A stretch of DNA of 21,178 bases from an uncultured bacterium (GCA_964488475.1 CAZAUK010000026.1:1-21178); one strand, 5' to 3'; positions 1,067 through 20,954 are shown, counted from the first letter of the stretch. A program made the numbers and translations. The notes: generated by a model not told the origin, from the sequence alone.

Positions 1067-2701
1067 CTATTTCATGATAAGGACCTTGCGCGTAAATGAG
1101 CGCTCTCCTATTCGAACCATCACAAAGTAAACACCGCCGGCGAGAGAGCCCCTGCAGCCGGACGCGGGATTCCACTCCTGAACAAACTGGCCTTTTCCGT
1201 GGATTCCTGCTGGAATATCGGACACTTTCCTTCCGGCTACATCGTATATCCCTATGTTTACCTCTTCCCTGTGTCCGAGAATGCAGTTAATGCTGAAACC
1301 GGCGCTGGTTGGATTTGGATAGATCTCCACTTGGTGCGGGAAACCTTCATCCGGCGGGCCGGAGTCTGTCACCACGACCTCCTCGCCGTACAGCAAAGCC
1401 GCGCCTTTGCCTCCTATGTTCCATCCTCCAGCCGCCAGGCTGCCCCCTCCGCCCGAATGCATTGTAAATCTTCCCGCCCCCGCCACCGAAATTCCCAGAC
1501 CTGAAGTGGTATCAGTCCCGACATCGGTGAAGGCCGCGGTGGCGGGCAGAGGATAGGTACCGGTGAACAGGTATACTTTTCCGAGCTGAACAGATGCCCC
1601 TCCATATCCGGGAGCGCCAATTATCATATCGCCGGTTCCATCTCCGTCCACGTCCGTGCTGGATATGGAATACCCGAATTGCTCTTCCATGAATTCTCCC
1701 ACCAGAGCGTCATCAGGTGTTCCGTCGACTATAGCTGCGCCCAGGAAGAAATACACCTTGCCCACATCGTCGCCGAAGAGGGAGTTGTAGTACGGGGCTG
1801 AGACTATATAATCATCTATCGAATCCCCGTTTATATCGCCTATGATTTTTGCCGCCGAGCCGAAAGCGTCTCCTACTGATACTCCTGTCATCTCAGCGTC
1901 GGCAACGGTGTCCATGGCCGCTCCGCACAGGTAGGCGTAAGCCTTTCCCGCCCATATGTCGGATTCATCGTTGCGGGGAGCCCCCACCAGCAGGTCATCC
2001 TCTCCGTCACCGTTTATGTCGCCTCCACAGTCTACTGTATATCCGAAAAAGTCGCCGGCGCCCTCACCGTAAAGAATTAAATCAGGATCCTGGTCCATGG
2101 GATCGCCACCAAAATATATGTATACCGCTCCGGTTGAATCCGCTTCGCAGGCTCCTACCACCAGGTCGTCGAAGCCGTCGGCATTAAGGTCTCCATTTAG
2201 GCACAGACCACGCCCGAAGCGGTCTCCGGAAGCTGATCCCTCAAGGACCAGGTCGGGAATCCCGTCCGGTGAGCAGCCGCCCAGAAAGAGGTACACGCGG
2301 CCGGGATCTTCTGACGCTCCAGAGGCGTATACGGCCACGTCGGAAAACCCGTCGTTGTTGATATCCCCCCCGCCGGCTACTCTTGTTCCCATCCTTTCGC
2401 CGGGGGCTCCGGTAAAGGTAAGGTCGGGAATCGAATCGGCGCTCATCCCGCCAAAATAAAGATAACACCGCCCGGCGGCGTCACCGCCGCTATCTTCCAG
2501 GTTGGCTCCCACCAGCAGGTCCTGGTATCCATCGCCGTTGAAGTCTCCGGCGCCGCAGAGCGAAATTCCGAATTGGTCGCTGATTTGCTGTCCTTGAAAG
2601 GTGGTGATCTTTTCCACCGATTGGGCAGGAAAGCTTATAAAAGATATCAGGAGAAAAGACGCCGAAAAGATCAAGAAAGATATTTTGAAGTAGTATTTCA
2701 T
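1067..2701 (-). CDS. FG-GAP repeat protein with a T9SS type-A C-terminal sorting domain (544 aa)
   Basis: Signal peptide MKYYFKISFLIFSASFLLISFISFPAQS. Many repeats of the form FG.S..GAGD.NGDG..DL.VGA, which are integrin-alpha FG-GAP/VCBS-like. The C-terminus YPNPTSAGFSI...IGIYDVAGRKV...GVYFVMVRIGERSFTRKVLIMK is a classic Por-secretion (T9SS) CTD. Confidence 0.85.
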   Translation of the reverse strand: MKYYFKISFLIFSASFLLISFISFPAQSVEKITTFQGQQISDQFGISLCGAGDFNGDGYQDLLVGANLEDSGGDAAGRCYLYFGGMSADSIPDLTFTGAPGERMGTRVAGGGDINNDGFSDVAVYASGASEDPGRVYLFLGGCSPDGIPDLVLEGSASGDRFGRGLCLNGDLNADGFDDLVVGACEADSTGAVYIYFGGDPMDQDPDLILYGEGAGDFFGYTVDCGGDINGDGEDDLLVGAPRNDESDIWAGKAYAYLCGAAMDTVADAEMTGVSVGDAFGSAAKIIGDINGDSIDDYIVSAPYYNSLFGDDVGKVYFFLGAAIVDGTPDDALVGEFMEEQFGYSISSTDVDGDGTGDMIIGAPGYGGASVQLGKVYLFTGTYPLPATAAFTDVGTDTTSGLGISVAGAGRFTMHSGGGGSLAAGGWNIGGKGAALLYGEEVVVTDSGPPDEGFPHQVEIYPNPTSAGFSINCILGHREEVNIGIYDVAGRKVSDIPAGIHGKGQFVQEWNPASGCRGSLAGGVYFVMVRIGERSFTRKVLIMK

Positions 2702-4087: not shown

Positions 4088-4113
4088 CACAAAATCAAGC
4101 CGTTGTTTCTATA

Positions 4114-4584
4114 TCAGTCTGAATTCTGTTCTTCTGAGTTCTTCAGAGACTGCAATGCCTCCGCATCAGCTAAATCCTTGGTTCTTCCTGAGGCCTTCTT
4201 ATTTCGAATAAGGTCATCAATTAATGGAATGCGCACATCGATTCCTTCAATCTTCAGAGGCATGGACCGGTTATAGACTTCTTTAAATTGAAGCCCCGAC
4301 GCCGTAGTAATTATGTCGATTCGCCTTGGAGCGACTCCGATCTGAAAAATGGTACCATCTGTCTGGAGGTCTTTCCTTGTTAAATTATGCAGAGGAGAAC
4401 CGAAGCGGCGCAGTGCCCGCATCACGGCGTCAGCGTTTTCTGGTGATGGCATAATCCAAATGTCAATATCCATGGTGGCCCGGGGATAACCGTGAGCTGC
4501 CATTGCATAAGCTCCAACAAGAAGAAATTTAACCTTCTCGTTGGACAAGGCGTGTAACATTTCTTTGTAGTCTTCGTTCAGCAT
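4114..4584 (-). CDS. Small Pol-beta-superfamily nucleotidyltransferase (MNT-like, 156 aa), possibly the toxin or antitoxin half of a TA-like module
   Basis: NTase signature LLVGAYAMAAHGYPRATMDIDIWI, i.e. hG[GS/A]-x13-DhDh. The basic C-terminal segment is RNKKASGRTKDLADAEAL. GC content is visibly lower than in neighbouring genes. Confidence 0.6.
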   Translation of the reverse strand: MLNEDYKEMLHALSNEKVKFLLVGAYAMAAHGYPRATMDIDIWIMPSPENADAVMRALRRFGSPLHNLTRKDLQTDGTIFQIGVAPRRIDIITTASGLQFKEVYNRSMPLKIEGIDVRIPLIDDLIRNKKASGRTKDLADAEALQSLKNSEEQNSD

Positions 4585-7080: not shown

Positions 7081-7974
7081 CTACGACCCCTTAGATGCCT
7101 CATCCGTAGGAGCGTATTTTCTGAAAACAAGATAGGCCCCGGAGCCCAGAGCCGCGCCCAGCGCCATTCCCGCGGCTACGTCCAGCGGCCAGTGTGCCCC
7201 GATATAGATTCTGGAGATGGAGACTAGTATGGCGACTATAAATAGGGGAACTAACAACTTTCTGTAGACCAGGCCCAGAAAAAGCATCGCGGCGGTGATA
7301 TTGGTGGCGTGACCGGAGGGAAAGGAGAAAGATGATTTGTAGCTTCTGGTGACTTCCAGGGGGGTGGTCATCCAGCCCGAGTCTTCGCTCCAGAAGTGGA
7401 CCCCGCCCAGTACCTCCACCGGCCGAAGCCGCTCGACTGCCTGTTTCAGCAGACTGCTCGATATCTGATCGGAGGCGACAATAAGCGGTATCAGGGCCAG
7501 CGCGGCCCATCTGCCTCTGGTCTTCCCGAATATTACCAGCGCGGACCAGATCAAAAGCACTACAACTCTCAATCTGTCAAAATCAGTCACCGCCGGCATC
7601 AGGGTGTCCAGGAATCCGGTCTGAACAGTCCGGTTGAAAAATCTGAAGATCCGTTTGTCCAGGTCCGGTTGACCGGCGGCCAAGCGGCGGGCCGCTGACG
7701 CCGGAGAATCGGCTTGGCGTCCTGATGGAAAGGCGGGGGCGGGCCGGGCGGCTGGTACTTGCTTGCCAATTGGCGCGGCCGAGTCTTTCTCATTGCTCGA
7801 TTCAAGGGTCAGGACGGGTTTTGGGCGGCCTTCAAGCGTGTCGCGCAACGAGTTTCTTTTATAGTTTGCAGAAGGGCCGGCCCCGGCGCACTGGCTTGAC
7901 CCGGAAGAGCAGATCCAGCAGAAGGCGAAAACAGCTGCCGCCGCCAGAGAGGAAAATTTGCCTGATATATTCAT
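7081..7974 (-). CDS. PAP2-family phosphatase (type-2 phosphatidic acid / undecaprenyl-PP phosphatase-like) with a roughly 120-aa Ala/Pro-rich N-terminal extension
   Basis: All three PAP2 motifs are present: KQAVERLRP (KxxxxxxRP), SFPSGH (PSGH) and SRIYIGAHWPLDV (SRxxxxxHxxxD). Multiple TM segments. It starts 18 nt after the stop of the upstream outer-membrane gene. Confidence 0.8.
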   Translation of the reverse strand: MNISGKFSSLAAAAVFAFCWICSSGSSQCAGAGPSANYKRNSLRDTLEGRPKPVLTLESSNEKDSAAPIGKQVPAARPAPAFPSGRQADSPASAARRLAAGQPDLDKRIFRFFNRTVQTGFLDTLMPAVTDFDRLRVVVLLIWSALVIFGKTRGRWAALALIPLIVASDQISSSLLKQAVERLRPVEVLGGVHFWSEDSGWMTTPLEVTRSYKSSFSFPSGHATNITAAMLFLGLVYRKLLVPLFIVAILVSISRIYIGAHWPLDVAAGMALGAALGSGAYLVFRKYAPTDEASKGS

Positions 7975-7992
7975 CCAGTCCGCGCCCGCGCT

Positions 7993-8583
7993 TTAGAAAG
8001 TGAATCCTCCAAGCAGGGAGAAGTACTTGGTGGAACTGCCTTCGGTAAAGATTATATGGAACAGAGGTTTTATCTCCCAGGTCCACTTTTCAGACTGGTG
8101 TACGGTCACCCCGCCGCCCAGATTTAATCCCGGCTTGAACTCCGAATCCTTGTAAGAGGTTGTAGTGCCCGAGACGGTGGTCTCGACATCCCAGGAGAAC
8201 CTGTAGAATCCGAATCCGGCCTGGCCGAAGAAAACGGCAGCGCCCATCGTATTGGGATTGAATATGAATTTCGCCTGAGGCAGGAATTCCATCACCGAGC
8301 CGGACCCGTCGATATCGGCCTGGGGAACCGCCCATCCGCCCTTGTCCACTCCCCATCTGTTGTAGGCGATCCTTCCGCCTAAGTGCACCCAGTCGTTATA
8401 GGGATAGAATCCGTCCAGTCCCAGGCACAGGCCGGTGTTGTAAAAATCCCCCGCGTCGCCGACCGGCATGGACAGTCCCGCGCCGGCGCTGAATTCGAGC
8501 ATATCCAGTTTTCCCTGGGCCTTGGTGTGTGAGATCGGGAGAATAATAAGAAGCGCGAAGATCAAAACAGCGACTTTCCGCAT
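7993..8583 (-). CDS. Small outer-membrane beta-barrel protein (OmpW/OmpA-like, 196 aa)
   Basis: Signal peptide MRKVAVLIFALLIILPISHTKAQG. Alternating hydrophobic, Gly/aromatic-rich beta-strand pattern. The C-terminal GGFTF ends in Phe, the typical BAM signal. RBS AAGGAGG. Confidence 0.7.
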   Translation of the reverse strand: MRKVAVLIFALLIILPISHTKAQGKLDMLEFSAGAGLSMPVGDAGDFYNTGLCLGLDGFYPYNDWVHLGGRIAYNRWGVDKGGWAVPQADIDGSGSVMEFLPQAKFIFNPNTMGAAVFFGQAGFGFYRFSWDVETTVSGTTTSYKDSEFKPGLNLGGGVTVHQSEKWTWEIKPLFHIIFTEGSSTKYFSLLGGFTF

Positions 8584-8744
8584 TCGATTTCCTCCTTCGG
8601 CAATTTGTTCAGACGCTTTTCCCTCGTTCAGAGGCTGATAAAACCGGCGGGGCCCGCGAACTCGATTTCCGGCAATTCGGTTGAGCGTAGAATGCCAGCT
8701 TTCTTTTTATATTACAAGAAATGAATGATGTTTCAGCCGAAGAT

Positions 8745-9569
8745 TCATGGCCCCGTTAGTTCGATAAGGCGCCTGGAAAAGTTGAATCCGCCTATTTGAG
8801 ATACGATTGACCTTTTTCCAGCTGTAAAGGGAAAGTTTATCAGCTCCGGCCTGCCCGCCGGGCTCAGCGAAACATTCTCCAGAAATTCGCCACACTTCAG
8901 GATAGAGGACGGCAGGGTAGCGAAGAACATGAAATCTATCAGCCCTTCCGCTTCCCTCTGGTCGACAGAGCACATAACGGACCTTCCGGGAATAACAGAA
9001 GGATCTGTCTTAAAGACGGGCTGGTTCTTGGTAAAGAACCTTCCGGCCTTAAGATACGCGAAAGGATTGCGAGCCGGGAATGCCGGGACATAGACTCTGA
9101 AAGAGCCGGCTGATTCGATGCTGGAAAGAAGCGTTTCTATCTCCCTGCCGCCGGGGGCGGCTTTCCGGTTGGAGAGGCCCGCGAGCATTCTCAGCCTTGC
9201 CGTTCCAGAGCCGGATTCAGTAGCGCTCGCATCTTCAAGTTCCCCGCCATTTTCGATCCTGCCGGCGGCTATTTCTCCAACTGTTTTCCTGATTCTTTCC
9301 AGGGATCTCAGCATACGGATTCTGAGCTGAACCGTGTCTATTTCAATCGACCAGAAGGGGAGAAATATAGAATCATCACTGATTCCGTCATTCGGAAGGG
9401 CGCCGCGTATTCTGATTTCTTTAAGGCCGCTTCGGGATATTATGAAATAGTTATAGCAGCCGGCGCATTGAAAGGTGATGCATTCCGGGTTCCCTTCCAG
9501 AGCTGATCCGCATCTTGGGCAAACGAGTCTTTCTATGGTAAGGGATCCGTTCATATCAACTTCCTTCAA
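8745..9569 (-). CDS. N-terminal zinc-ribbon protein, paralog 1 of 3 (274 aa, no TM)
   Basis: CPRCGS...CAGC ribbon followed by a conserved PFW segment (IFLPFWSIEI). It overlaps the stop of the upstream gene by 14 nt, consistent with translational coupling. RBS GAAGGAAG. Confidence 0.65.
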   Translation of the reverse strand: MKEVDMNGSLTIERLVCPRCGSALEGNPECITFQCAGCYNYFIISRSGLKEIRIRGALPNDGISDDSIFLPFWSIEIDTVQLRIRMLRSLERIRKTVGEIAAGRIENGGELEDASATESGSGTARLRMLAGLSNRKAAPGGREIETLLSSIESAGSFRVYVPAFPARNPFAYLKAGRFFTKNQPVFKTDPSVIPGRSVMCSVDQREAEGLIDFMFFATLPSSILKCGEFLENVSLSPAGRPELINFPFTAGKRSIVSQIGGFNFSRRLIELTGP

Positions 9570-10662
9570 ACCATCTGCTCAGCCTGTGCTTGAGCCAACG
9601 GTGCGGGGCAATGACTCCGCCGCTTTTGACCTGGTCGGCCGTGTAGACAAGGGCGGCGGCGATGATCACCAGGGGAAACCAGGTGCCCGCCAGAAAGGCC
9701 AGCGCGGCCGGCACGAAAAAAAACGGAGCGGGATTTATCGTTTTTCTTTTGGGGACGTCGGAGCGGATAACAGCGCCGCTGGAGCCGTCTATTGTTATAA
9801 CGTGTATGATATCCCTGAACTTGTAGCGGATCAGGTAGACCGGGTAATAGTAAAGGGACAGGGATTTGCCGAACAGGTTGAATCTTCCGGCGTGGATTCT
9901 GGAGCCGGAGGGCTTGGCCAGGTTTATTGAATGTTTCAGGCAGTCGGCTTCCGCTTTCTTTTCTCCTGTCATGGGAATAGCGATATTCATGGAGGCCTTG
10001 AGGTCGTGGTTGAATACCTCCCATTCAAGAAGGGAGGCTCTGAGGGCTATTCCCTGAAGCCCGAGGTATCTTAGAACGCAGGCCGGGGCGCTCCAGTCCA
10101 CGCGCCTGGTTATGAATTTGGAGAAAGGATGTTTGACCTCCCTCACCGTTGTCGTGGTCATCTCTCCGTTTGGAGTGGCTACCGGCTTTTCGATCTTTTT
10201 AAGCTCGACCCGGTCTCCGCAGATCCATCCCATGAATCTTCCTCTCATCTTCCAGAAAGGCACGTAGACCAGCTTTTCCTCCATGATGGAAGTGTGTTTG
10301 GCTTTTACCAGGTCACCGCTCTCCTTGGAAATATGACGAATAGCGGTGAGCCTGGCCTTGCCCCCGGTTATTTCAGGCTTCAGGTAGAAGCTTCTGACTC
10401 CTCGAGGATCAGAGACGTACAGCCCGGCCCCGCAGTATTCACATTCCAGGCTCTTTACCCCTTCCGAGACTCTCAGCGATCCTCCGCATGACGGGCAGAG
10501 GGCTCCAAAAGTCTCCCGGGCAGCCGGCCGACCGGGGTCAGGTTCCTTTCCCCGGAACCGGCTTTCCGATACTGATGCTGCTACAGGGTCGAAGGCCGAT
10601 TGAAAACCTTCAGCCAAGCCGTGGCCCGGAACGCCCTTCTGGTAAAGAGTATGGTCATTCAT
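9556..10662 (-). CDS. Zinc-ribbon protein, paralog 2 of 3, with a C-terminal TM anchor (368 aa from M42 of the track ORF)
   Basis: Start trimmed to ATG 10662 because it forms an ATGAATGA overlap with the stop of the upstream CDS 10655..11359. Ribbon CPSCGG...CEYCG. Conserved YVPFWKMRG segment. C-terminal hydrophobic stretch FFFVPAALAFLAGTWFPLVIIAAALVY. Confidence 0.6.
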   Translation of the reverse strand: MNDHTLYQKGVPGHGLAEGFQSAFDPVAASVSESRFRGKEPDPGRPAARETFGALCPSCGGSLRVSEGVKSLECEYCGAGLYVSDPRGVRSFYLKPEITGGKARLTAIRHISKESGDLVKAKHTSIMEEKLVYVPFWKMRGRFMGWICGDRVELKKIEKPVATPNGEMTTTTVREVKHPFSKFITRRVDWSAPACVLRYLGLQGIALRASLLEWEVFNHDLKASMNIAIPMTGEKKAEADCLKHSINLAKPSGSRIHAGRFNLFGKSLSLYYYPVYLIRYKFRDIIHVITIDGSSGAVIRSDVPKRKTINPAPFFFVPAALAFLAGTWFPLVIIAAALVYTADQVKSGGVIAPHRWLKHRLSRWFEGS

Positions 10663-11359
10663 TGGAGGCCGCCAACTTGCCGCGAAGCTTGAAAAACAAA
10701 AATCCGGCCGCCGCGGCCGCTCCCAGCAGCACCAGCCTCGGCAGGGTTCCACCGGCCAGCCGGCCCAGAAAAAGGTAGCCGGCAAAAAGAGCGCCCGCGG
10801 CGATTATTCCGGGCTTATCCAGAGGTTCGGCTTTTCTGGGAGGCAGGCGGTCAATCTGAACCCACCAGCTTTCCCCGATGACCGCAGCTTTCCAACGCCT
10901 TTTGGACAGGTTAAAGGAGACGTCATAAACCGGCAGGTATATTATTCTGGAAGCGTCAGGGTCGACGGCGGAAGGCCTGATTATTTTTTCTCCCCCGGCC
11001 AGTTCCTGGTCAAAGTAGCAGTAATCGCCGGCGGGTGGATCCGGCATAGGCCCGACAGATGAAGGAGCGTCCCCGCTGGGGCAGGCGCTGTTGCCTCCAT
11101 CCTGATCTTCTATGATGAAGAATGGGGCGAAGGCGAATTTAATTCTGATGTTTTTGGCTCGTCCCATGTTTCGTTTCAGAAGAAACGACTCAAGTACATC
11201 TTCCGCGGTGCGGTCGTTCCTCTGGTGGGGAAGAATAAGCTGTTCCCCGCGGCCGCCGTCTTCCACGGTAAGGGCTGAACCGCAGTAAGAGCACCTCATC
11301 ATGCTCTGTCCTGGATGAACCCTGTTTTCGCCGCCGCATAGATCGCACTTGACCAGCAT
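10655..11359 (-). CDS. Zinc-ribbon protein, paralog 3 of 3, with a C-terminal TM anchor (234 aa)
   Basis: Ribbon CDLCGG...CSYCGS. FAFAPFFIIED segment. C-terminal hydrophobic stretch IIAAGALFAGYLFLG...LVLLGAAAAAGFLFF. It starts 2 nt after the stop of the SPFH gene (TAGAAATG). RBS GGGAGA. Confidence 0.65.
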   Translation of the reverse strand: MLVKCDLCGGENRVHPGQSMMRCSYCGSALTVEDGGRGEQLILPHQRNDRTAEDVLESFLLKRNMGRAKNIRIKFAFAPFFIIEDQDGGNSACPSGDAPSSVGPMPDPPAGDYCYFDQELAGGEKIIRPSAVDPDASRIIYLPVYDVSFNLSKRRWKAAVIGESWWVQIDRLPPRKAEPLDKPGIIAAGALFAGYLFLGRLAGGTLPRLVLLGAAAAAGFLFFKLRGKLAASNE

Positions 11360-11361
11360 TT

Positions 11362-12507
11362 CTAATCTCCCTGAACCCTTTCACCACAGTTTGTGCAGAA
11401 CTTCGTGCCGGGCGGCAGCTTGGCCCCGCAATGCCGGCATTTCAGATCCTCGCTCAGTTCTTTTCCGCAGTTGGAACAGAATCTGGCTTCCCCGGGCAGC
11501 TCCGTATGGCATTCGGGGCACCTGTTCATGGAGATGAGCTGGGCGCCGCAGTTTCTGCAGAACCTCGAATCGGATGAGACCTCATTGTGGCAGCGGGGGC
11601 AGTTCAGTTGCCCGGCCGCTGCTTCGCCCTGTCCGGCCGGCCGCCCCGTGACCGCCTGGGCGAGCATTCCGGGCATCATCATTCCCAGACCGGCTCCCAC
11701 TCCTATTCCCATTCCGCCGGCCGCGGCGCTTCCCGCGCCGCCGGTCCCGGCGCCGGTTGCTGCGTCCCCCATCGCTTTGGCCGCCTTGAACTTGAAGAAA
11801 CTGTCAAGATTTCCCACCGCCTGAAGCCCGCTCCTCTCGTCGATCATCTTCTGCACCTCGGCCGGAGGAGTAATGGAATTTATATACAAGTCCACCAGCT
11901 CCATGCCGTACTTTGAAAAGTCGTTTTCAAGACGGTTTCTTATTTCCACGGCCAGCTCGTCGTAATTCTGCGGAAGCTCGAATATGGTGTCGAGCTGCTC
12001 GCCGAACAGATCATTGATTCTGGAGACGATCACGTCTCTTAAATAGTTCCCTATCATCTCGCTGGTGTACACGCCCTGGGTCCCCACCACGTGGTTTATA
12101 AACAGGACCGGTTCCCTGATCTTGAAGGTATAGAGCCCGAAGGCCCTCAGCCTTACCAGACCCAGCTTGCTGTCCTTAAAGGCCACGGGATCCTTGGTCC
12201 CCCATTTCTGGCTTAGGAAGGTCTTCATGTTTACGAAGTAGACCTCGGCCCTGAAGGGACTTTTGAACCCCCAGGGAAGTGAGAGGACCTTGGTGAGAAT
12301 GGGAAGGTTTTTAGTGGTCAGAGTGTGGCGGCCGGAACCGAAAATATCCAGTCCCTTACCGTCCTTGAAAAAAACGGCGCTCTGGTTGTCTCGAACCACC
12401 AGCTGGGCCCCCATCTTGATTTCGGCTGATCCTTCAGGGGGCAGCCGGTGGACGATTTCTTGCCCGCTCTGGTCGAACCATTCCAGTACTTCCATAAACT
12501 GAGACAT
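11362..12507 (-). CDS. SPFH/Band-7 (Band_7_1, YdjI-like) domain protein with a Gly/Ala/Met-rich linker and three C-terminal zinc ribbons (381 aa)
   Basis: The start is set at M6 (ATG 12507), which follows the RBS GGAGGAAAG. N-terminal segments [18 protein letters not shown] and [27 protein letters not shown] match my recollection of the Band_7_1 family, often mis-annotated as 'virion core protein'. The C-terminus carries CPRCH..CRNCG, CPECH..CSNCG and CRHCG..CTNCG. Confidence 0.75.
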
Positions 12508-12860
12508 CTTTCCTCCATTCACTGTGTTTGTTATCTGTTATAATCACTGCGCTTAAGTGCGCCGGCGGCTTCATCCGCCGGGACTAGCCATAAAAATCAT
12601 CGTTGCTTATTTTTTCGGGTATATTCCATTTGAGCAAAGGGAGTGCCAAAATTCACCCTGCCCTGGAGTTATGGAGGAAAGCCCGGCCGCCGCCGGGCAA
12701 AATCTGTCTGGACAACCGATTTATATATTTTAATATATATGTAGCGCCACCGGCGGCCCGGTAAAGAATGATGAATATCGGTCTCCGCTGTGGGTCAGCC
12801 GCTTGAAAGAAGCAGCCGCGATGGCTGGGGGCAACGGTTTTAACAGGGAAACGGCCTGAG

Positions 12861-14582
12861 ATGAAATCATATATTCTGCCTTCGATCGTTCGGTATTTCA
12901 TATATCCCTTTTACCGGGGTTTTAGAAAGGACAGGGTTCTTTCCATACTGGATGAACTGGAGCGGAACCAGTGGCTGTCCTTCGAAGAGATAGAGGATAT
13001 CCAGTGGCGGAGGCTGATAGGCCTGCTCAAATACGCCGTCCTGCACGTACCCTATTACCGGGACCTCTTCAAAAAAAGAGATATTATGGCGGACCAGATT
13101 GAAAGTGCCTCCGATTTCAGGAAAATCCCTTTTCTTACCAGAAATCTGATCAGGGACAACAGCCGGGAACTGGTAAGCGGGGATCCCCTGCGCAAGGGTT
13201 ACGTCGCCAGCACGGGCGATTACGCCGGAGAGCTTCTTGATGTTTTCTGTGATTACTCGGCGGGGCCGGTCCGGCGTGCCAACACCTTAAGGCAGCTCAG
13301 GGCCGCAGGTGTCGACATAGGCGAGAAACAGCTGTATCTGGTAGGGTTTCAGAGTGACAGGCCGCTCAAAGAGCGCTTTAAGGAAGGGATCAAGGATTTT
13401 TTCTATAACAGAAGATTCCTTTCCGCTTTCGATATGTCGGAAGACAACATGAAAAGGTACGCTTCGGTGGAGCGTTCCTACAGGCCGTCTCTGGTAGTGG
13501 GGATTCCATCGGCCCTCACCCTTTTCTCGAAGTTCTGCCTTAACAATTCGATAGAGCTTCATACCCCCAAAGCGATCTTCACCAAGGGAGAGACTCTATA
13601 CCAGGATCAGAGGGAAATGATCGAGAAAGCGTTCTCGGCGCCGGTGTTCAACCGGTACGGATCTAGAGAGTTCGCCGAGGTAGCCTGCGAATGCGAAAAA
13701 CACGACGGAATGCACCTGTCAAGCGATCTGTTCTACGTGGAGGTTGTAAGGCCCGGCGGCGGGCCCGCCGCTCCCGGGGAAGAGGGGGAGCTGGTGATCA
13801 CCGATCTTTCAAATCTATATATGCCTTTTATTCGATACAGGACCGGCGATAAGGCCGTTCAGTCGGACAGGCAGTGTTCCTGTGGAAGGGGGCTTCCTCT
13901 CCTGGAAGGTATAGAAGCCCGAACGGTGGACTCGGTGAGGACGCCGGGGGGAAAGGTGGTTCCCGGTTTTTTCTGGATGTGGCTGTCCAGGACAGTACCC
14001 GGAGTCAAAAGGTTCCAGGTGGAACAGATGAAGTTGTCCTCCATAAATTACAGGATGATTCCCGGAAGGGGCTGGAAGGATGAATACGCTGAAGAGCTCA
14101 AGAAAAAAATTAGAGCTAACTGCGGAGAAAACATGAGCGTTAATATGATGATCGTTGATGAGATACCGGTATCTGAAAACGGCAGGGCCCGGTTCATGAT
14201 TTCTAATATAAAGGATAGGCTGGTAATAAAATCAAAGATTCACAAGGCGAACGTTACCGGGGTAGAGCCCGGCCTCAATGACTGTTTGCGGATCGACGCC
14301 GAACTCATGGATCTGGCGGACATATCTGAATACGAGAAGATACTCATAGTCAACAGCACCAACGGTTCCCGCCTGGAGACTTTCGCTGTCAGGGGAGAAA
14401 GGGGGACCGGGGAGATAGTCTCCTGCGGTGGAGTTTCAGCCCAGGTTTCCAGGGGAGATGAGATAGGCGTCATGGCATTCACCTGGTCCAGCGAACCGGA
14501 AAGCGCCTTCAGCAACATTCTGGTGGATGAAAAGAACAGGTTCTCGCGTTATCTTACCGAGACGGCTGGAGATAAGATTTAG
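12861..14582 (+). CDS. PaaK/CapK-family adenylate-forming enzyme (phenylacetate-CoA-ligase-like) fused to a C-terminal PanD-like, probably non-catalytic, domain (573 aa)
   Basis: The N-terminal roughly 440 aa show the PaaK/CapK/F390-synthetase-like signatures: WLSFEEIEDIQWRRLIGLLKYAVLHVPYYRDLF, IRYRTGD and EARTVDSVRTPGGKVVPGFF (the A8-like R.DD.....G..V.P). The C-terminal roughly 125 aa align along their whole length with aspartate 1-decarboxylase. Confidence 0.75.
   Translation: MKSYILPSIVRYFIYPFYRGFRKDRVLSILDELERNQWLSFEEIEDIQWRRLIGLLKYAVLHVPYYRDLFKKRDIMADQIESASDFRKIPFLTRNLIRDNSRELVSGDPLRKGYVASTGDYAGELLDVFCDYSAGPVRRANTLRQLRAAGVDIGEKQLYLVGFQSDRPLKERFKEGIKDFFYNRRFLSAFDMSEDNMKRYASVERSYRPSLVVGIPSALTLFSKFCLNNSIELHTPKAIFTKGETLYQDQREMIEKAFSAPVFNRYGSREFAEVACECEKHDGMHLSSDLFYVEVVRPGGGPAAPGEEGELVITDLSNLYMPFIRYRTGDKAVQSDRQCSCGRGLPLLEGIEARTVDSVRTPGGKVVPGFFWMWLSRTVPGVKRFQVEQMKLSSINYRMIPGRGWKDEYAEELKKKIRANCGENMSVNMMIVDEIPVSENGRARFMISNIKDRLVIKSKIHKANVTGVEPGLNDCLRIDAELMDLADISEYEKILIVNSTNGSRLETFAVRGERGTGEIVSCGGVSAQVSRGDEIGVMAFTWSSEPESAFSNILVDEKNRFSRYLTETAGDKI
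14196..14579 (+). other. PanD-like domain within the fusion protein (residues ~446-573)
   Basis: IKSKIHKANVT aligns with PanD LKSKIHRATVT, so K9, H11, R54 and T57 are conserved. The cleavage/pyruvoyl site G24-S25 is replaced by D-C (codons GAC TGT at 14280-14285). Y58 is F, and the N72 of NGAAAH is C (CGGVSAQ). An in-frame ATG at 14196 lies just upstream of the domain. Confidence 0.65.
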
Positions 14583-14583
14583 A

Positions 14584-14640
14584 CTGTCCCGGCCCCGATA
14601 TAAATTTCAACCTGTATCAGGAGGGAGACAGGTTTTATTT
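14584..14640 (+). terminator. Possible weak intrinsic terminator after the PaaK-PanD-like fusion gene
   Basis: CCTGT-(12-nt loop)-ACAGG at 14611-14632, followed by TTTTATTT (14633-14640). An alternative outer pairing is CTGTCCC / GGGA(ga)CAG. The stem is short, so this call is weak. Confidence 0.3.
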
Positions 14641-14927
14641 CATCCCGGCCCGGCATTAGGATCACGTGCCGCTTTGAAACCGGTATAGGATTCAACCAGC
14701 ATCCTGCGGTAGTCCGGATTCATTCCATCTCGCCCCGGGAATAAAATTCGCCTCATCCCTGCCGGTATTTTTTTCTTTGCCTTTGTTTTTAATAATTATT
14801 AAATATATTTTATACGAAGCCACCGTTATTCAGAATTACCGGCCGCCGATTTAAGCTTGGAGGTTTTCCGGCTCCCGGCGATAACCGGCGGCATATTACA
14901 CAAGATGTTTTTAAAGGGAGCGCTTCT

Positions 14928-15287
14928 ATGAAAAGGCTTCTTCTCAAATCGATGATATTAGACGCCAGGGTTACCCAGGCCGACCTTCGCTACGTGGGAA
15001 GCATAACCATAGACGAGGATCTTCTGGAAAAATCGGATCTGTCCGAGCATGAGAATGTTCATGTCGTCAACAGGACTAACGGCAACAGGCTGCAGACTTA
15101 CATCATAAAAGGGGAGAGGGGTTCGGGAGTCATATGCATGAACGGCGCGGCAGCTCACCTGGTCAACGAGGGCGACCATATAGATATTATGACCTTTTCC
15201 TGGTCCGAGGATGAGGCCCGGCCGCTTTTTATAAAGCTGGACGGGAAAAACCGCTTTCTGAGGTACTGCGGCAGTGATGAGATCTGA
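14928..15287 (+). CDS. panD: Aspartate 1-decarboxylase (PanD) zymogen, 119 aa, with non-canonical M9/L11
   Basis: Colinear with E. coli, B. subtilis and M. tuberculosis PanD: ...VTQADLRYVGSITIDEDL...NGNRLQTYIIKGERGSGVICMNGAAAHLV. G24-S25, R54, T57, Y58 and N72 are conserved, but position 9 is M (canonical K) and position 11 is L (canonical H). RBS AAGGGAG. A 60-bp AT-rich block at 14780-14822 upstream is a likely promoter region. Confidence 0.85.
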   Translation: MKRLLLKSMILDARVTQADLRYVGSITIDEDLLEKSDLSEHENVHVVNRTNGNRLQTYIIKGERGSGVICMNGAAAHLVNEGDHIDIMTFSWSEDEARPLFIKLDGKNRFLRYCGSDEI

Positions 15288-15321: not shown

Positions 15322-16449
15322 ATGCTGAAGAAGAGCCTGCGCCTGTTCCAGCTGTGGGGGATACCCGTAGAGCTGCACGTGAGCTGGCTGCTCATCCTGG
15401 TGCTGATAACCTGGAGCTTCGCCACAGGGTTTTATCCCGCCAATTATCCCGGGCTTTTTTCGTCCTTGCAGATTTGGGCCATGTCGCTTCTTACCGCCGT
15501 TCTACTTTTCATTTCAATCCTCCTTCACGAATTCAGCCATTCGCTGGTTGCCAAGCGAAACGGCCTGCCCATAGGAAAGATAACTCTGTTCATGTTCGGA
15601 GGGGTGGCCCAGATGAAAAACGAGGTGGAAAGTCCCGGGGTAGAATTGAGAATGGCCTCGGCCGGCCCTGTCATGACCCTGGTGCTGGTGGGAGTCTTCT
15701 ATCTGCTTTCCCGGCTGCTGTATGGGGTCACATGGCTTTCCGTGCTGTTCCAGGCTCTTTCCAGTATCAACGCCGTCGTTTTCATATTCAACATGGTGCC
15801 TGGATTCCCCCTGGATGGGGGCAGGATTCTGAGGGCCTTGATATGGTACAAAAACGGAAATATTCTTAAAGCCACCAGATTCGCCAGCATGATCGGCAAG
15901 GGTTTCGCCCTTCTATTAATGGCATTCGGAGTTTTCAGCGTGCTGGTTTACTCCAACTTCATAGGAGGGATATGGCTGGTGATAATCGGTGGATTCCTGA
16001 GACAGGCGGCAAACAGGAGCTACAAGATAGTTCTCTACAGACAGGTGCTGGAAGAAATGGATCTGGAGGATATAGTAAGGCGGGATGTGGTCACGGTGAA
16101 TCCCTCGATGAATCTGGAGGCTCTGGTAAACGAATACTTCAGAAGATACCAGTATTTTTCATTCCCGGTCGTGGAGAACGGATTCCTGATAGGACTGGTA
16201 TCGATAGATGACGTAAAAAAGGTAAAAAAGACCTCATGGGCGGATACTATAGTGGCGAGGGTGGTCAACACCAGGCTGCGGGAGTTTGTCATTCACGGTT
16301 TTAATTCTCCGGGCAGGCTTTTTCAGCTGATCAACTCGAACAAGTACGATAATTTTCCCGTAGTGGACAGCACCGGGACTCTGCGCGGAATCATAAACAG
16401 AAGCGATTTCGAAAAAGCGGTCAAGGTCACCCTCTCCCTGAGCAGATAG
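15322..16449 (+). CDS. M50-family site-2 protease with a C-terminal CBS-domain pair (375 aa)
   Basis: HEFSH (HExxH) in a TM segment; second S2P motif NMVPGFPLDGGRIL (the LDG motif); multiple TM helices. The C-terminal roughly 130 aa show two CBS-like repeats (VVTVNP..., FPVVENGFLIGLVSIDDV, FPVVDSTGTLRGIINRSD). RBS AAAGGAAAACA. It starts 34 nt after panD, suggesting an operon. Confidence 0.8.
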   Translation: MLKKSLRLFQLWGIPVELHVSWLLILVLITWSFATGFYPANYPGLFSSLQIWAMSLLTAVLLFISILLHEFSHSLVAKRNGLPIGKITLFMFGGVAQMKNEVESPGVELRMASAGPVMTLVLVGVFYLLSRLLYGVTWLSVLFQALSSINAVVFIFNMVPGFPLDGGRILRALIWYKNGNILKATRFASMIGKGFALLLMAFGVFSVLVYSNFIGGIWLVIIGGFLRQAANRSYKIVLYRQVLEEMDLEDIVRRDVVTVNPSMNLEALVNEYFRRYQYFSFPVVENGFLIGLVSIDDVKKVKKTSWADTIVARVVNTRLREFVIHGFNSPGRLFQLINSNKYDNFPVVDSTGTLRGIINRSDFEKAVKVTLSLSR

Positions 16450-16642: not shown

Positions 16643-17446
16643 CTACTCTTCAGCTTCAGGTTCCGGCTCCGGTTCTGGTTCCGGCATATTCTCTTCAAAG
16701 ATCGAATCATCTATGTTGACATCGAAAGAGATATCCTCCCATATGACCTCGCTGTATTTCGCCCCGTCCGTGTAAACGGTCTGCCTGAAAGGATACAGGT
16801 ATCCGTTTACTTCCCTGAAATCTTCCAGAAGAAGCTGGCGGTTCCCCTCTTCTATAATTCGAATCGGCCGGCGTGTCTTTCCGCTGATATCAAAATAGAC
16901 CGTGTCGCCTTCCATCACGCAGCCCACCCTGTCGAAATCCACCTCGGTGATAAGCGAATCCGGGGTGGGATCCTCCACCACGAAGAAGGTGTCGCAGCTG
17001 GTCAGATAATAGGTGGGAGCTTCTGTCATCTCCTTATAGCTCTTTTTGACCGTAGAGGTGTAACGGGGGCGCTGGCGCACGTTCATGTTTACTTCTGCCC
17101 AGACCATTCCGTCGTTGTAGTAATAGGTGTAGTAGAACGGATGGTCGAAGGCGCCGAAATTCTGATCGATCTTCATCTTGTCCGGTTTCTTGACATGTAT
17201 CGTGTATTCGGCCCTGAGTGTTCCCCAACCTGGATTGTAATTGGTGAGGAGCCCTTTCTGAACACGGGTTTCCCATTGGGTGGCGTTATTCTTTCCGCCC
17301 ATCTCCTTAACGGATTCCGCCAGGATCTTCTCCGCCGGGCTGGAGTACTGTTCTTCGCAGGATGAAAAAACGGCGCAAAGAGCGGCCGCGGCAAATACCG
17401 GAATCAATAATACTGCGATTTTATCTCCAATGGAAAAATTATGCAT
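16643..17446 (-). CDS. Lipoprotein of unknown function with a C-terminal (PE)n acidic tail (267 aa)
   Basis: Lipobox signal ...AAAALCAVFSSC. RBS GGAGGAG. C-terminus NMPEPEPEPEPEAEE. It starts 12 nt after the stop of the aldo/keto-reductase gene, suggesting an operon. Confidence 0.65.
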   Translation of the reverse strand: MHNFSIGDKIAVLLIPVFAAAALCAVFSSCEEQYSSPAEKILAESVKEMGGKNNATQWETRVQKGLLTNYNPGWGTLRAEYTIHVKKPDKMKIDQNFGAFDHPFYYTYYYNDGMVWAEVNMNVRQRPRYTSTVKKSYKEMTEAPTYYLTSCDTFFVVEDPTPDSLITEVDFDRVGCVMEGDTVYFDISGKTRRPIRIIEEGNRQLLLEDFREVNGYLYPFRQTVYTDGAKYSEVIWEDISFDVNIDDSIFEENMPEPEPEPEPEAEE

Positions 17447-17458
17447 TTGTCTCCTCCA

Positions 17459-18697
17459 TCAAACCGTTAGGGTAGAATGCGCGTCGATCATCTTAGACTT
17501 TACGGGCAGCCCAAATCCGCATGAACTTTCACAGACACCCGTGCAAGAAAGGCAACGCGAAGCCATCTTGGCCCGGGGAAGCGATGCGTAACGCTGCATC
17601 GCGTATTTCTCCCGGCCGTAGTTTCTGAAGTACAGGTCGTAGCGGAGAATGTCATGAATGGGCACATTGTAGGGGCATGCTTTCAGGCATCCGTCGCAAC
17701 CGGGGCGGCAGTAATCATGAGCTAATTTTGCTCCATATCCCTCGAGGACTCTTCTTTCCCTCAGTGACATCTTGGGTCGGCCCGAGACTTCGACAAACTC
17801 GTTGATCTGCTCGAACGACCTCATGGTTATTGCTATGGTATCGATGTTCGGTTGGGCCAGAAGCCATTTGATCAATGCCTGCCTGGCTGTTCTGCCCTCT
17901 TTCATGTACTCGCTGTAGTCGATTTTACGCGCCGCCGACAGGGATTTCATGGCCACCACGGCAACGCCTTTCTTTTTCGCCTTGGCGAGCACTGGTTCTA
18001 TGCCCTTCGTCATCATGTTCATTCCGGGCATGATCATACCTATATCAGTGTTCTCGATCAGCCAGCCCAGTTCCTCCGCCATCTTGGGACCGTGGGAACT
18101 TGCTCCCCAGCAACGGATCTTGCCCTGCGATATCGCTTTCTCGAAGGCCTTATAGATATTCTCATTCTCTAATCTGGCCTGGCCGCCGCGGCTGGGATCG
18201 CCCACCGAGTGAATCAGGCAACTGTCTATATAGTCGGTGTTCAGGCGCTTGAGACTTTCTTCTATTCCGGCCAATACCTCATCCACTGTGACCTCGGCGG
18301 TGATCAGCTCCGGCATAAGTTTGGTGGTCACGAACAGTTTGCCGCGCTTCTCGGGAAAAATCTGTCCGACCACTTTTTCCATCTCATAATACTGACGGGC
18401 CGTATCGACGTAGTTTATACCCCGCTCCATGGCGTATTCCAGGGTTGAGGGATCGGTCATTCCGGCGTTGCCGAAAGAGATATCGCTGACTTTCCAGCCG
18501 GTACTCCCCAGCTTTCTGTATTCGTTTATCTGGGGCGGTTTCTTTTCTGCGCCGGCGGCGTTACCCGCGCTTTTCTTTTCCTGAGCGCCGGAAACGGAAC
18601 CGGCCAGGCCGGATAATCCCAGTCCAGCGCTTACTATCGATGCCGCGCCGGTTCTCAAAAACGACCTCCTCGAGATGTTCTTGTCGGAATCTTTCAT
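17459..18697 (-). CDS. Tat-exported aldo/keto reductase-family oxidoreductase with a Cys-rich (putative Fe-S) C-terminal extension (412 aa)
   Basis: Twin-arginine signal SRRSFLRTGAASIVSAGLG. AKR core motifs GINYVDTARQYY and LIHSVGDP. The C-terminal roughly 80 aa carry nine Cys (CRPGCDGCLKACPY...CLSCTGVCESSCGFG). Strong RBS AAAAGGAGGAAAG. Confidence 0.7.
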   Translation of the reverse strand: MKDSDKNISRRSFLRTGAASIVSAGLGLSGLAGSVSGAQEKKSAGNAAGAEKKPPQINEYRKLGSTGWKVSDISFGNAGMTDPSTLEYAMERGINYVDTARQYYEMEKVVGQIFPEKRGKLFVTTKLMPELITAEVTVDEVLAGIEESLKRLNTDYIDSCLIHSVGDPSRGGQARLENENIYKAFEKAISQGKIRCWGASSHGPKMAEELGWLIENTDIGMIMPGMNMMTKGIEPVLAKAKKKGVAVVAMKSLSAARKIDYSEYMKEGRTARQALIKWLLAQPNIDTIAITMRSFEQINEFVEVSGRPKMSLRERRVLEGYGAKLAHDYCRPGCDGCLKACPYNVPIHDILRYDLYFRNYGREKYAMQRYASLPRAKMASRCLSCTGVCESSCGFGLPVKSKMIDAHSTLTV

Positions 18698-18833
18698 CTT
18701 TCCTCCTTTTACTGGCGATCTTCTGGGTTATGTTTGTTCGCGGTTTTCATCGCGGAGGAAACTGCAAATCTTCTTCGATCTATTTGTTACCTGTTACCGG
18801 ACCGATGAAACTGGTAAGATTCAGCCGTTACGC

Positions 18834-20954
18834 TTAATCAGAATCCTCCTCACTCTCCAGGCCGTAGTGCTCGTCCAGAATCAGATCCGGCATGGGGCCG
18901 TCCAGTGGTCTGGCCTCTTTAACGTACCAGTCGTACCACTGCAGGTGTCTATAAAGTACGTCTATCCTGCCGGGTTGTTTCCTGTTTCCATGTCCCTCCC
19001 CGGGATACCGGACCATCCGGACGGCGGGGTGTTTGTTCATCTTCAGTCTTCGGTAAAGCTCCAGACTCTGTCCCGGATGGACTCTGGGATCTGCGGTGCC
19101 CCCCAGGATCAGCACCGCCGTTTCGCTCCGATTGGCGTAGTAGACAGGGCTTCTCTTAATACTGTATTCCCACATCTCCCATGATTCATCCAGCAGTTTT
19201 CCGGAGTGGACGTAAAGCTCTTCGTAGGGGATGTCGGTGGTGCTCCTTTTGCTTACCAGGTCGCTGATTCCCACGAACACGCAGACCGCCCGGACGTAAT
19301 CGGTATAGTAGGTGCCGAACCAGGCTGAGGCGTAACCTCCGTAGGAGCCGCCTCCCATTCCCACCCGTTCGGGGTCGGCTATTCCCCTGTCTACCAGGAA
19401 TTCGATTCCATCGGCCAGGTCGTCGAACTCTTTTCCCGCGGCGTCCATGTAGCCCTGCATTCCAAACTCCACCCCGTAGCCGGTGCTGGCCCGGTAGTTG
19501 GGATAGAAGACCACGTATCCCCGGGAGGCCAGGACCTGGGCCGGGTTGAAATAAGAGCCGATCCAGCCGTTGGTGTAGTGCGATTCGGGCCCGCCGTGGA
19601 TTCCCATGACCAGCGGATACCTTTCACCGTTTTCGTAGCCGGCGGGATAGACCAGGATTCCTTCTATCTCGAGCCCGTCGCGGGCTGTATATCTGACCAC
19701 TTCCTGCCTGCCGAGATTTCTTTCTGATATCCATGGATTAAGCTCGGTGAGCCTTTTCGGGTCGCCGGAGCCTTCCTTCCAGTAGAATATGTCACCGGGA
19801 ATCCGGGGTGATTGGCAGACCAGAGCGAAATGCTTGGAATCTCCGGTATGGTCGTACGAGCCGATCACCAGCCCCATCCGCTCCCCGTCCAGGATCTTCT
19901 TCCTGTCATCTCCATCGGATTCGATGGCATATATATTATTCCAGACTCCCTCGGCAGCCTCGTAGATTATGGTGTCGTCGTCCTTCCATCCGACCCTGGT
20001 GATATGCCCTCTGAAATCCGGTTCGGTCAGGTTCTTGGGCTTGTCGCCGTCTGTTTCGATGACATATGCCTGGCTCACCGCGTGGTCCTTCAGGTTCAGC
20101 GACGCTGCGTAGGCGATCTTTGACCCGTCGGGGCTGAACATGAAGTTTCCCATTTTACCCTCATGGGTTGTGAGCTGTCCGGTATCGCCTGATTCAGCAT
20201 CTACCAGATATATGTCCTTGAACATATACCGGTGGTCGACCAGATTCTTCGGCGATATCATGGCGGCTATGGTCTCGCCGTCCGGGCTGAACTGGAAGTC
20301 CCATACCACCTTGTCTCTGGTTATCCGATGGGCTTCCGCCGGAGGGTCTTCGTATTTGAATGGGACTATGTATATGTCGCGGTGCTTTAGGTTTTCTTCA
20401 AAGTATATAAAATCATACCCTTTGTCTTCGAGCGTTTCTTCTGTCTCGCTCTCTGGTTCGGTGGCGACGAAGGCGATCTTCTCTCCTGAGGGATGCCACC
20501 TGAAGAGAGGAACACCTGTATCACTGCTGGTCACCGGCATAGATTCGCCGCCGTCCACCGGAATGGCCCAGACCTGCCGTTTGGACCCTTCTCCCCGTTT
20601 CATGAGAAAAGCGATGTGGGAGCCGTCCGGGCTGAAGACCGGTGAGCTTATGTTTACCTTTCCGGTTATGAAAGGGTGCGTATCACCCGTTCGGGTCGAT
20701 ACCAGGTAGAGCTCGGTGTAGCCTCCGCCAGGCTCATCATCCGGCTCGCGCCCGGAATAGACGATATAGGCGATCCATTCTCCATTCGGGCTGATCCTGG
20801 CGTAGTAGCTCCGCTCGATCTTCATAGCGTCTCGAGGAGTGAACTCTGTCAGATTCTGAGCCCAAACGACGCCTGCTAGGGCGGCCGCGGAAACCGATAG
20901 GGCCATAAAAATCATTAACGACTTTATAACTGAGACTTTCGGGATTGACATCAT
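18834..20954 (-). CDS. S9-family serine peptidase (prolyl-oligopeptidase / acylaminoacyl-peptidase-like) with an N-terminal beta-propeller, secreted (706 aa)
   Basis: Signal peptide. PD40-like repeats (FSPDGSHIAF, FSPDGSKIAYAAS). Nucleophile motif GGSYGGY (GxSxGG). Catalytic-His region YPGEGHGN. RBS AGAAGGAGGA. Confidence 0.85.
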   Translation of the reverse strand: MMSIPKVSVIKSLMIFMALSVSAAALAGVVWAQNLTEFTPRDAMKIERSYYARISPNGEWIAYIVYSGREPDDEPGGGYTELYLVSTRTGDTHPFITGKVNISSPVFSPDGSHIAFLMKRGEGSKRQVWAIPVDGGESMPVTSSDTGVPLFRWHPSGEKIAFVATEPESETEETLEDKGYDFIYFEENLKHRDIYIVPFKYEDPPAEAHRITRDKVVWDFQFSPDGETIAAMISPKNLVDHRYMFKDIYLVDAESGDTGQLTTHEGKMGNFMFSPDGSKIAYAASLNLKDHAVSQAYVIETDGDKPKNLTEPDFRGHITRVGWKDDDTIIYEAAEGVWNNIYAIESDGDDRKKILDGERMGLVIGSYDHTGDSKHFALVCQSPRIPGDIFYWKEGSGDPKRLTELNPWISERNLGRQEVVRYTARDGLEIEGILVYPAGYENGERYPLVMGIHGGPESHYTNGWIGSYFNPAQVLASRGYVVFYPNYRASTGYGVEFGMQGYMDAAGKEFDDLADGIEFLVDRGIADPERVGMGGGSYGGYASAWFGTYYTDYVRAVCVFVGISDLVSKRSTTDIPYEELYVHSGKLLDESWEMWEYSIKRSPVYYANRSETAVLILGGTADPRVHPGQSLELYRRLKMNKHPAVRMVRYPGEGHGNRKQPGRIDVLYRHLQWYDWYVKEARPLDGPMPDLILDEHYGLESEEDSD

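Follow-up and report, generated by a model that had tools for sequence, protein, structure and literature searches.

A stretch of 21,178 nucleotides (nt) from an uncultured bacterium (GCA_964488475.1 CAZAUK010000026.1:1-21178), hereafter the window, carries on its plus strand a gene for a 573-aa protein in which a PaaK/CapK-like domain is fused to a C-terminal pseudo-PanD domain (FD), and, after a gap of 345 nt, a gene for a 119-aa standalone aspartate 1-decarboxylase PanD (SA). Sequence comparison favors, at a probability of about 0.6, the reading that SA and FD together form an obligate heteromeric aspartate 1-decarboxylase with active sites split between the two chains. In the comparison of canonical PanD columns, each paralogue had lost what the other kept, on opposite faces as far as these are documented. 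Complementary residue loss on two paralogues and their strict co-occurrence, the pattern by which a pseudoenzyme heteromer would be recognized, were both found in the sequences. An earlier note on this DNA had suggested that a hetero-oligomer could rebuild complete sites, and this appears to be the best-supported reading, judging from the complementary loss, the rarity of K9 loss, the geometry of the PanD site, and the fold of FD.

Complementary active-site residues in FD and SA

PanD (PF02261/TIGR00223), to which both SA and FD are homologous, is a homotetrameric pyruvoyl enzyme with its sites at protomer interfaces. Strictly conserved residues are K9, H11, Y22, G24, Pyr25, R54, T57, Y58, G73, A74, A75, I86, and N112, as given in a source summarizing the PanD structures of Helicobacter pylori, Thermus thermophilus, and Mycobacterium tuberculosis (PMC3314653). 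The active sites and the cleaved loops are located at each protomer-protomer interface (PMC4410942). An asterisk assigns Lys9* and Arg54* to the other subunit, with none on Pyr25, Thr57, and Tyr58, and the alpha-carboxylate of the substrate is paired by Lys9* (PMC3314653); an independent source has Arg54* facing Ala74/Ala75 (PMC6969166). The asterisk marking agrees with the background given in the earlier note, namely K9 of one protomer facing the pyruvoyl group and Y58 of its neighbor. H11 was placed in trans because it lies two residues along the same strand as K9. For Escherichia coli PanD, the Protein Data Bank (PDB) title of 1pt1 describes the H11A variant as "unprocessed," and the S25C variant is "processed" as deposited (1pyu).

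Residues were numbered by alignment to the PanD of E. coli and M. tuberculosis. The residue mapping proposed earlier for FD was reproduced in the alignment, with K9, H11, R54, and T57 kept and G24-S25, Y58, and N72 lost. The Pfam model Asp_decarbox matched fusion residues 454-560 over model positions 4-113 of 115 (81 bits, E 6e-23), and FD scored under the PanD equivalog cut-off (TIGR00223, 63.7 bits vs 106). Across about 95 fusion clusters, the motif KSKIH(K/R)A is invariant, R54 is kept, and N72 is lost. All of them have D at position 24, whereas position 25 can hold C, G (~10%), or S (~8%); position 58 is F in ~91%, and T57 is mostly retained. Among canonical columns conserved to at least 80%, FD departs at Y22, G24, S25, T27, Y58, I60, N72, A75, and I86, the last being I, S, or G across the family.

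SA is the mirror image of FD, as had been described before, with YVGS, R54, T57, Y58, and N72-GAAAH present in the alignment and M9 and L11 in place of the trans residues. It exceeds the PanD equivalog cut-off in NCBIfam (TIGR00223, 121.8 bits vs 106) and is covered over its whole length by Asp_decarbox in Pfam (133.6 bits). YVGS, T57, Y58, and MNGAAAH are invariant in the SA family. None of the 120 best SA homologue clusters has K9; two carry V or I there and the others M, which occupies position 9 in 97% of the SA family. At position 11, nearly every cluster has L, M, I, or V, and all other catalytic residues are kept. SA thus lacks K9 and H11, which are strictly conserved in PanD (PMC3314653), and departs from the canonical columns conserved to at least 80% only at K9, H11, and I86. 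The I86 to D exchange (SA residues 82-88, window 15171-15191) is invariant in the SA family apart from T in the L170 lineage.

The absence of a PanD fold from the fusion C terminus had been named beforehand as a finding that would speak against the heteromer. In the AlphaFold2 (AF2) model, the fold is predicted to be present. FD modeled alone reached a predicted local distance difference test score (pLDDT) of 88.8, and its superposition on the unprocessed PanD structures 1ppy, 2c45, and 1pqf gave template modeling (TM) scores of 0.80-0.89 with a root mean square deviation (rmsd) of 1.4-2.1 A.

The earlier note had also raised the idea that FD cleaves itself at D24-C25 by way of the cysteine, which would make it a pyruvoyl enzyme in its own right. 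The processed state of the deposited S25C variant (1pyu) and the mostly retained T57 are in its favor; however, position 25 varies among C, G (~10%), and S (~8%), G24 is always D, and N72, Y22, and Y58 are lost, which makes cysteine-mediated processing highly improbable. A second suggestion, that an in-frame ATG at 14196 (M446) could start a separate FD product, did not hold either, since every relative examined, the 89%-identical one among them, has I or V at this codon, and a separate product is therefore no conserved feature.

The FD of locus L100 retains more canonical residues (Y22, S25, N72, A74, and A75). P0245, a metagenomic protein of 148 aa, joins an FD-like N-terminal half (KSKIH, D-G) to an SA-like C-terminal half; it stems either from recombination or deletion between the paralogues or from chimeric assembly. 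The SA gene of L100 (2226-2564) has A9/V11, an in-frame TGA at the G73 codon, and a TAA at codon 84. Recoding of UGA was ruled out for it, the two in-frame stops being TGA and TAA, and the gene is a pseudogene or a sequencing error.

Co-occurrence of the paralogues and the proposed split-site model

The same architecture was found by protein search in about 95 clusters (90% identity) that are 40-89% identical to the window fusion, are labeled "aspartate 1-decarboxylase" or "phenylacetate-CoA ligase," and come from metagenome-assembled genomes (MAGs) of Candidatus Krumholzibacteria and Latescibacterota. The complementary pattern of K9/H11 against the pyruvoyl site was kept in more than 20 independent loci; it is a conserved and widespread feature and not the accident of a single sequence. 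In most fusion loci whose contig extends far enough, SA is the next gene after the fusion; this is so in the window and in L001-L003, L005, L087, L088, L090, L091, L095-L098, L102, L106, L165, L168, L170, L172, and L174, and in L170 the SA start codon overlaps the fusion stop codon. Conversely, four look-ups were begun from SA-type proteins (P0159, P0249, P0137, and P0127), and in each of the four the gene directly upstream was the fusion.

A search of 1.84 billion representative proteins with the FD profile returned 3388 PanD-superfamily representatives. Among the best 150 of them, which as the nearest hits of the FD profile are not a random sample, 128 carried every residue of the canonical signature (K9, H11, G24-S25, Y58, and N72), and only two were without K9, one of the SA family (P0203) and one encoded directly downstream of a fusion (P0249). 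The unbiased count of K9 was taken from these hits because the canonical set in the column comparison had been defined by K9+G24+S25, which renders its K9 value of 100% circular. For a similar reason, the 79 canonical PanDs returned by the contig scan with the whole-fusion alignment are no evidence for K9/H11 conservation, having been selected by the pattern KSKIH[KR]A used in that scan; L005 was the sole real fusion among its results. Checked for co-occurrence in this manner, with the four SA-first look-ups and the best 150, K9-less PanDs proved essentially confined to the fusion-paired family. Likewise, pseudo-PanDs of the D24 type were found in the superfamily profile search only as CapK fusions or obvious fragments thereof.

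In a neighbor-joining tree with midpoint rooting, FD formed one clade and SA another; such a tree cannot show sisterhood, so the origin of the two by local duplication is unproven. Between the window and L168, the ratio of nonsynonymous to synonymous substitution (dN/dS) was 0.05 for FD, 0.07 for SA, 0.10 for the CapK part at a synonymous divergence (dS) of 0.67, and 0.07 for the M50 metalloprotease gene that follows SA.

In the proposed mechanism, SA would self-cleave at G24-S25 to the pyruvoyl and would provide T57, Y58, N72, and A74/A75. FD, presumably unable to make the pyruvoyl, would provide K9, H11, and R54 to the SA site across the interface. The chains would alternate head to tail in a ring, with a complete canonical site at the interface between the cis face of SA and the trans face of FD and a dead one at the FD/SA interface. 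If the ligase domain dimerizes as PaaK enzymes do, it would template a 2:2 complex. Maturation of SA may depend on FD as well, through H11, and, more speculatively, the invariant D24 of FD might pair with the retained R54 of SA at the dead interface.

The spacer between the two genes contains an AT-rich block, TTTTTTCTTTGCCTTTGTTTTTAATAATTATTAAATATATTTTA, at window positions 14767-14822, which is almost identical to L168 ~4090-4140 in a comparison where synonymous sites are ~66% diverged. The block is probably the promoter/operator or another regulatory region of panD itself in the window lineage, judging from this conservation. A terminator/promoter scan and folding of the spacer gave nothing above shuffled sequences, and no Rfam match was found in it. 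A loosely similar AT-rich stretch is located upstream of the fusion gene at ~12722-12745.

The conserved upstream block also bears on another explanation, in which SA is a self-sufficient homotetramer tolerating M9/L11 and FD is a docking or tethering module that, in the service of channeling or regulation, recruits SA to the ligase or binds aspartate or beta-alanine and contributes no catalytic residues. SA passes the equivalog cut-off, keeps all cis residues and R54, has this block of its own in the window lineage, and is missing next to the fusion in two contigs. Against this, the 100% conservation of K9/H11 in FD despite its lost catalytic machinery is hard to explain for a tether, the loss of K9 is confined to FD-linked PanDs, K9 binds substrate and is strictly conserved (PMC3314653), and the E. 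coli H11A variant was deposited unprocessed (1pt1). A self-sufficient SA is on balance unlikely.

Considerably less likely is a role of FD as a maturation factor only, a tethered analogue of PanZ/PanM that SA requires in trans for its cleavage, e.g., via H11, and stays outside the mature site. The unprocessed H11A variant (1pt1), the resemblance of FD to the zymogen conformation, and the need of many PanDs for a helper in cleavage (PMC3975893, PMC3398536) fit such a role. FD, however, has no similarity to the GNAT-type PanZ, and K9, the ligand of the alpha-carboxylate (PMC3314653), is absent from SA and invariant in FD, which argues for a role in turnover beyond maturation.

Several points weigh against the split-site heteromer itself. 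The trans position of K9 is drawn from one secondary source (PMC3314653), and that of H11 is deduced from it. The R54 retained by SA would face the dead site in a strictly alternating ring, and the invariant D86 of SA is not accounted for by that arrangement. A hydrophobic M9/L11 pocket might allow SA to decarboxylate alone. Finally, no SA adjoins the fusion within the two short contigs L093 and L094.

The ligase half and its genomic context

The AF2 model of the full-length fusion has a mean pLDDT of 83.7, falling below 50 at residues 119-123. Its first ~448 residues adopt the two-domain PaaK fold (Foldseek E ~1e-28 to 2e-28 against 4rvn, 4r1l, and 2y4o; TM normalized to the target 0.65-0.68), the overall fold shared with PaaK phenylacetate-CoA ligases and with the non-CoA enzymes NatL2, AjiA1, and ClxA. 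Among PaaK-family enzymes, the C-terminal PanD-like domain is unique to the fusion family. Matches of the N-terminal part to the NCBIfam models for PaaK, F390-synthetase, FlxY, and DVU_1553 were weak and far below the cut-offs; the PaaK equivalog TIGR02155 was not reached (82.6 bits vs 646), and the best match was DVU1553_fam (139 vs 300).

In the family consensus, the adenylation signatures SSTGGSTGEPL (phosphate loop), YG..EF, and RYRTGD are intact, as are IEGR at the hinge and SGK with the A10 lysine. The degenerate phosphate-binding loop ASTGDYAGELL is confined to the window copy and its 89%-identical relative (P0002/L168), which also have IEARTVD and NGRARF; the window copy keeps YG..EF and RYRTGD. 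The phosphate loop and A10 lysine typical of ANL/PaaK enzymes are therefore found in most relatives and not in the window copy. In the 504/508-aa forms of the fusion, which lack residues ~366-436, the A10-bearing subdomain is deleted. The ligase-like part in the window is under purifying selection and not freely decaying (dN/dS as given above). FD and SA persist where the ligase part has decayed (window/L168, L003, L005, and L174). That they outlive the ligase function time and again suggests a purpose of the decarboxylase pair independent of it, the simplest being to supply beta-alanine. In the window lineage, the long protein would probably be just the scaffold and activating partner of PanD.

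A gene for a 400-aa Polysacc_deac_1 protein, weakly PgaB/IcaB-like, is located immediately upstream of the intact-motif fusions (L001, L002, L087, L088, L090, L091, L095, L096, L100, L170, L172, L176, and L178). Genes for glycosyltransferases, a Wzx flippase, a sulfotransferase, and a FemAB-like protein are often added, and polysaccharide loci of this kind surround the fusion in L087, L170, L172, L176, and L178. Closely related ligase homologues that have no PanD domain likewise pair with a Polysacc_deac_1 deacetylase. Loci with a degenerate or truncated ligase (window/L168, L003/L004, L005, and L174) have either no deacetylase or just a 36-aa remnant of it, so that loss of the ligase motifs goes with loss of the deacetylase (12/1 vs 0/4, Fisher p = 0.002). 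The remnant corresponds to the deacetylase C terminus, is a trace of the lost gene, and lies just upstream of the 508-aa truncated fusion (L003 7854-7961 and L004 1693-1800). In L096 (8200-10774), the fusion-SA pair is followed by a second CapK-like gene (37% identical, without a PanD domain) and a second deacetylase gene, and the ligase-deacetylase unit has therefore been duplicated in one locus. The window itself is not a polysaccharide locus, as it contains no deacetylase or glycosyltransferase gene, and the neighbors are Band_7, M50, aldo-keto reductase, and S9 peptidase genes. Neither the degenerate adenylation motifs of the window copy nor the polysaccharide biosynthesis context usual for the family had been part of the earlier note.

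CapK/VpsH-type enzymes share the PaaK fold with the fusion and are encoded among glycosyltransferase, flippase, and tailoring genes. In Vibrio cholerae, the PaaK/CapK-like VpsH is genetically required for the addition of glycine to GulNAcA on the lipid-linked intermediate of Vibrio polysaccharide (VPS) (PMC13463779). By analogy, the CapK-like domain may plausibly join an amino acid to a sugar, and the family members with intact motifs are probably ligases that attach beta-alanine to glycans and have a decarboxylase on board. In the common module, the CapK-like domain would put locally made beta-alanine onto the polysaccharide, either by amidation of a uronic acid, for which VpsH is the precedent, or by re-acylation of the amine freed by the deacetylase. 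For VpsH, in contrast to the fusion, no decarboxylase domain or partner has been described, and the window copy differs from it in lacking the phosphate loop, the hinge glycine, and the A10 lysine.

The usual setting among polysaccharide tailoring genes, together with the unexplained invariant change of I86 to D in SA, would also suit a pair acting on aspartate that is not free, such as a glycan-bound, carrier-bound, or substituted aspartyl group, in a pocket reshaped by M9, L11, and D86. Yet R54, the ligand of the beta-carboxylate, and all residues around the pyruvoyl are canonical in SA, and FD and SA persist in loci devoid of ligase motifs and deacetylase. Such a change of substrate is very unlikely.

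Coordinates of the features are given in Table 1. The gene for an M50 metalloprotease with a CBS pair, 34 nt after SA in the window, had been named in the earlier note as perhaps co-transcribed with panD. It follows SA also in L001, L002, L091, L168, L172, L174, L176, and L178 and is a syntenic neighbor in Krumholzibacteria-type loci, not part of the core, because it is missing from L087, L096, and L170. On the minus strand upstream of the module, window positions 7081-12522 encode a PAP2 protein, three to four proteins that match no Pfam family, of which one contains a zinc ribbon, and a Band_7/SPFH protein carrying triple zinc ribbons, a string from PAP2 to Band_7/SPFH that is common to the window, L002, L003, L172, and L174. 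Downstream, positions 16643-20954 (minus strand) encode a 266-aa protein that has no family match and ends in a (PE)n tail, an aldo-keto reductase with an Fe-S motif, and an S9 peptidase, in the same order in L001, L002, L091, L176, and L179. An FG-GAP repeat protein with a Por_Secre_tail, the sorting domain of type IX secretion, is encoded at 1067-2701 (minus strand), as would fit a source in the FCB group or in Krumholzibacteriota.

Table 1. Features of the fusion-panD locus in the window, with the basis of each assignment (ORF, open reading frame)
Feature	Coordinates	Strand	Basis
Fusion gene, 573 aa: PaaK/CapK-like domain (aa 1-448) and pseudo-PanD domain FD (aa 449-573)	12861..14582	+	ORF, Pfam/NCBIfam, AF2, Foldseek
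Degenerate phosphate-binding loop ASTGDYAGELL (family consensus SSTGGSTGEPL)	13206..13238	+	Family alignment
Hinge motif IEARTVD, G to A (family consensus IEGR(S/T)FD)	13911..13931	+	Family alignment
Position of the catalytic A10 lysine, NGRARF, K to R (family SGK(S/F)(K/R)F)	14178..14195	+	Aligned to ATGKARRVI of PaaK structure 2y4o
FD, double-psi beta-barrel fold of the unprocessed PanD zymogen (predicted)	14205..14579	+	PF02261, AF2, structure superposition
KSKIHKA, K459 (K9) and H461 (H11) retained	14229..14249	+	Family alignment (K 100%, H 100%)
N-D-C-L, D474-C475 replacing the G24-S25 cleavage/pyruvoyl site	14277..14288	+	Family alignment
NGSRLETF, R504 (R54) and T507 (T57) kept, F508 replacing Y58	14361..14384	+	Family alignment
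SCGGVSAQ, C522 replacing N72, G73 kept, A74/A75 altered	14421..14444	+	Family alignment
AT-rich block in the fusion-panD spacer, nearly identical in L168	14767..14822	+	Alignment of window 14583-14927 with L168
Standalone PanD (SA), 119 aa, with pyruvoyl site and cis residues but M9, L11, and D86	14928..15287	+	TIGR00223, alignment
KSMILDA in SA, M9/L11 replacing K9/H11	14946..14966	+	Alignment
Y22-V-G24-S25 of SA, self-cleavage/pyruvoyl site intact	14991..15002	+	Alignment
M50 metalloprotease with CBS pair, syntenic neighbor, not core	15322..16449	+	Pfam

Relation to known systems and meaning of the pair

Known PanDs are homo-oligomers with all residues on each chain; here, the trans residues (K9 and H11) and the cis residues (pyruvoyl site, Y58, and N72) are distributed over two paralogues, one of which forms part of a fusion with a different enzyme fold. 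Literature searches yielded no paper on a PanD that is heteromeric or on a pseudo-PanD. In trypanosomatids, the catalytic subunit of the pyruvoyl-dependent S-adenosylmethionine decarboxylase (AdoMetDC) depends on a dead paralogue, the prozyme, that arose by duplication, and in heteromers of deoxyhypusine synthase (DHS) paralogues the active sites are shared at the interface. Both are eukaryotic systems of other folds and without fusion to a second enzyme, and the residue complementation put forward here is a proposal. A dead paralogue that completes or activates a catalytic one is a known principle from these examples; it would be new for PanD, where it comes together with an unusual fusion.

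PanZ/PanM is required for PanD activity and binds at the protomer interfaces of PanD (PMC4410942, PMC3398536). It differs from FD in being a GNAT-fold acetyl-CoA sensor of Gammaproteobacteria, no paralogue of PanD, and in giving no K9/H11. No match to the GNAT fold was found with Pfam or NCBIfam in any of the three proteins.

Joining the parts, we tentatively propose, at somewhat less than even odds for the whole, an obligate two-gene, split-site PanD that arose by duplication and complementary degeneration, with the dead subunit carried on a CapK-type glycan ligase and beta-alanine made at the point of use. In several lineages, including that of the window, the ligase would have become a pseudoenzyme as well, and a 573-aa protein dead in both halves would be maintained only because it switches on the PanD of the cell.

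PanD is a drug target and a textbook case of an enzyme that forms homo-oligomers and processes itself. If the proposal is true, the pair would be, as far as the literature searches show, the first heteromeric PanD with the first PanD pseudoenzyme, and a clean bacterial case of a homomer turned into an obligate heteromer via complementary loss. Some 100 database entries that now carry the name "aspartate 1-decarboxylase" or "phenylacetate-CoA ligase" would have to be annotated anew. The pair also points to an undescribed beta-alanylation of polysaccharides in Krumholzibacteriota-type bacteria, which would be carried out by a module of deacetylase, ligase, and on-board decarboxylase.

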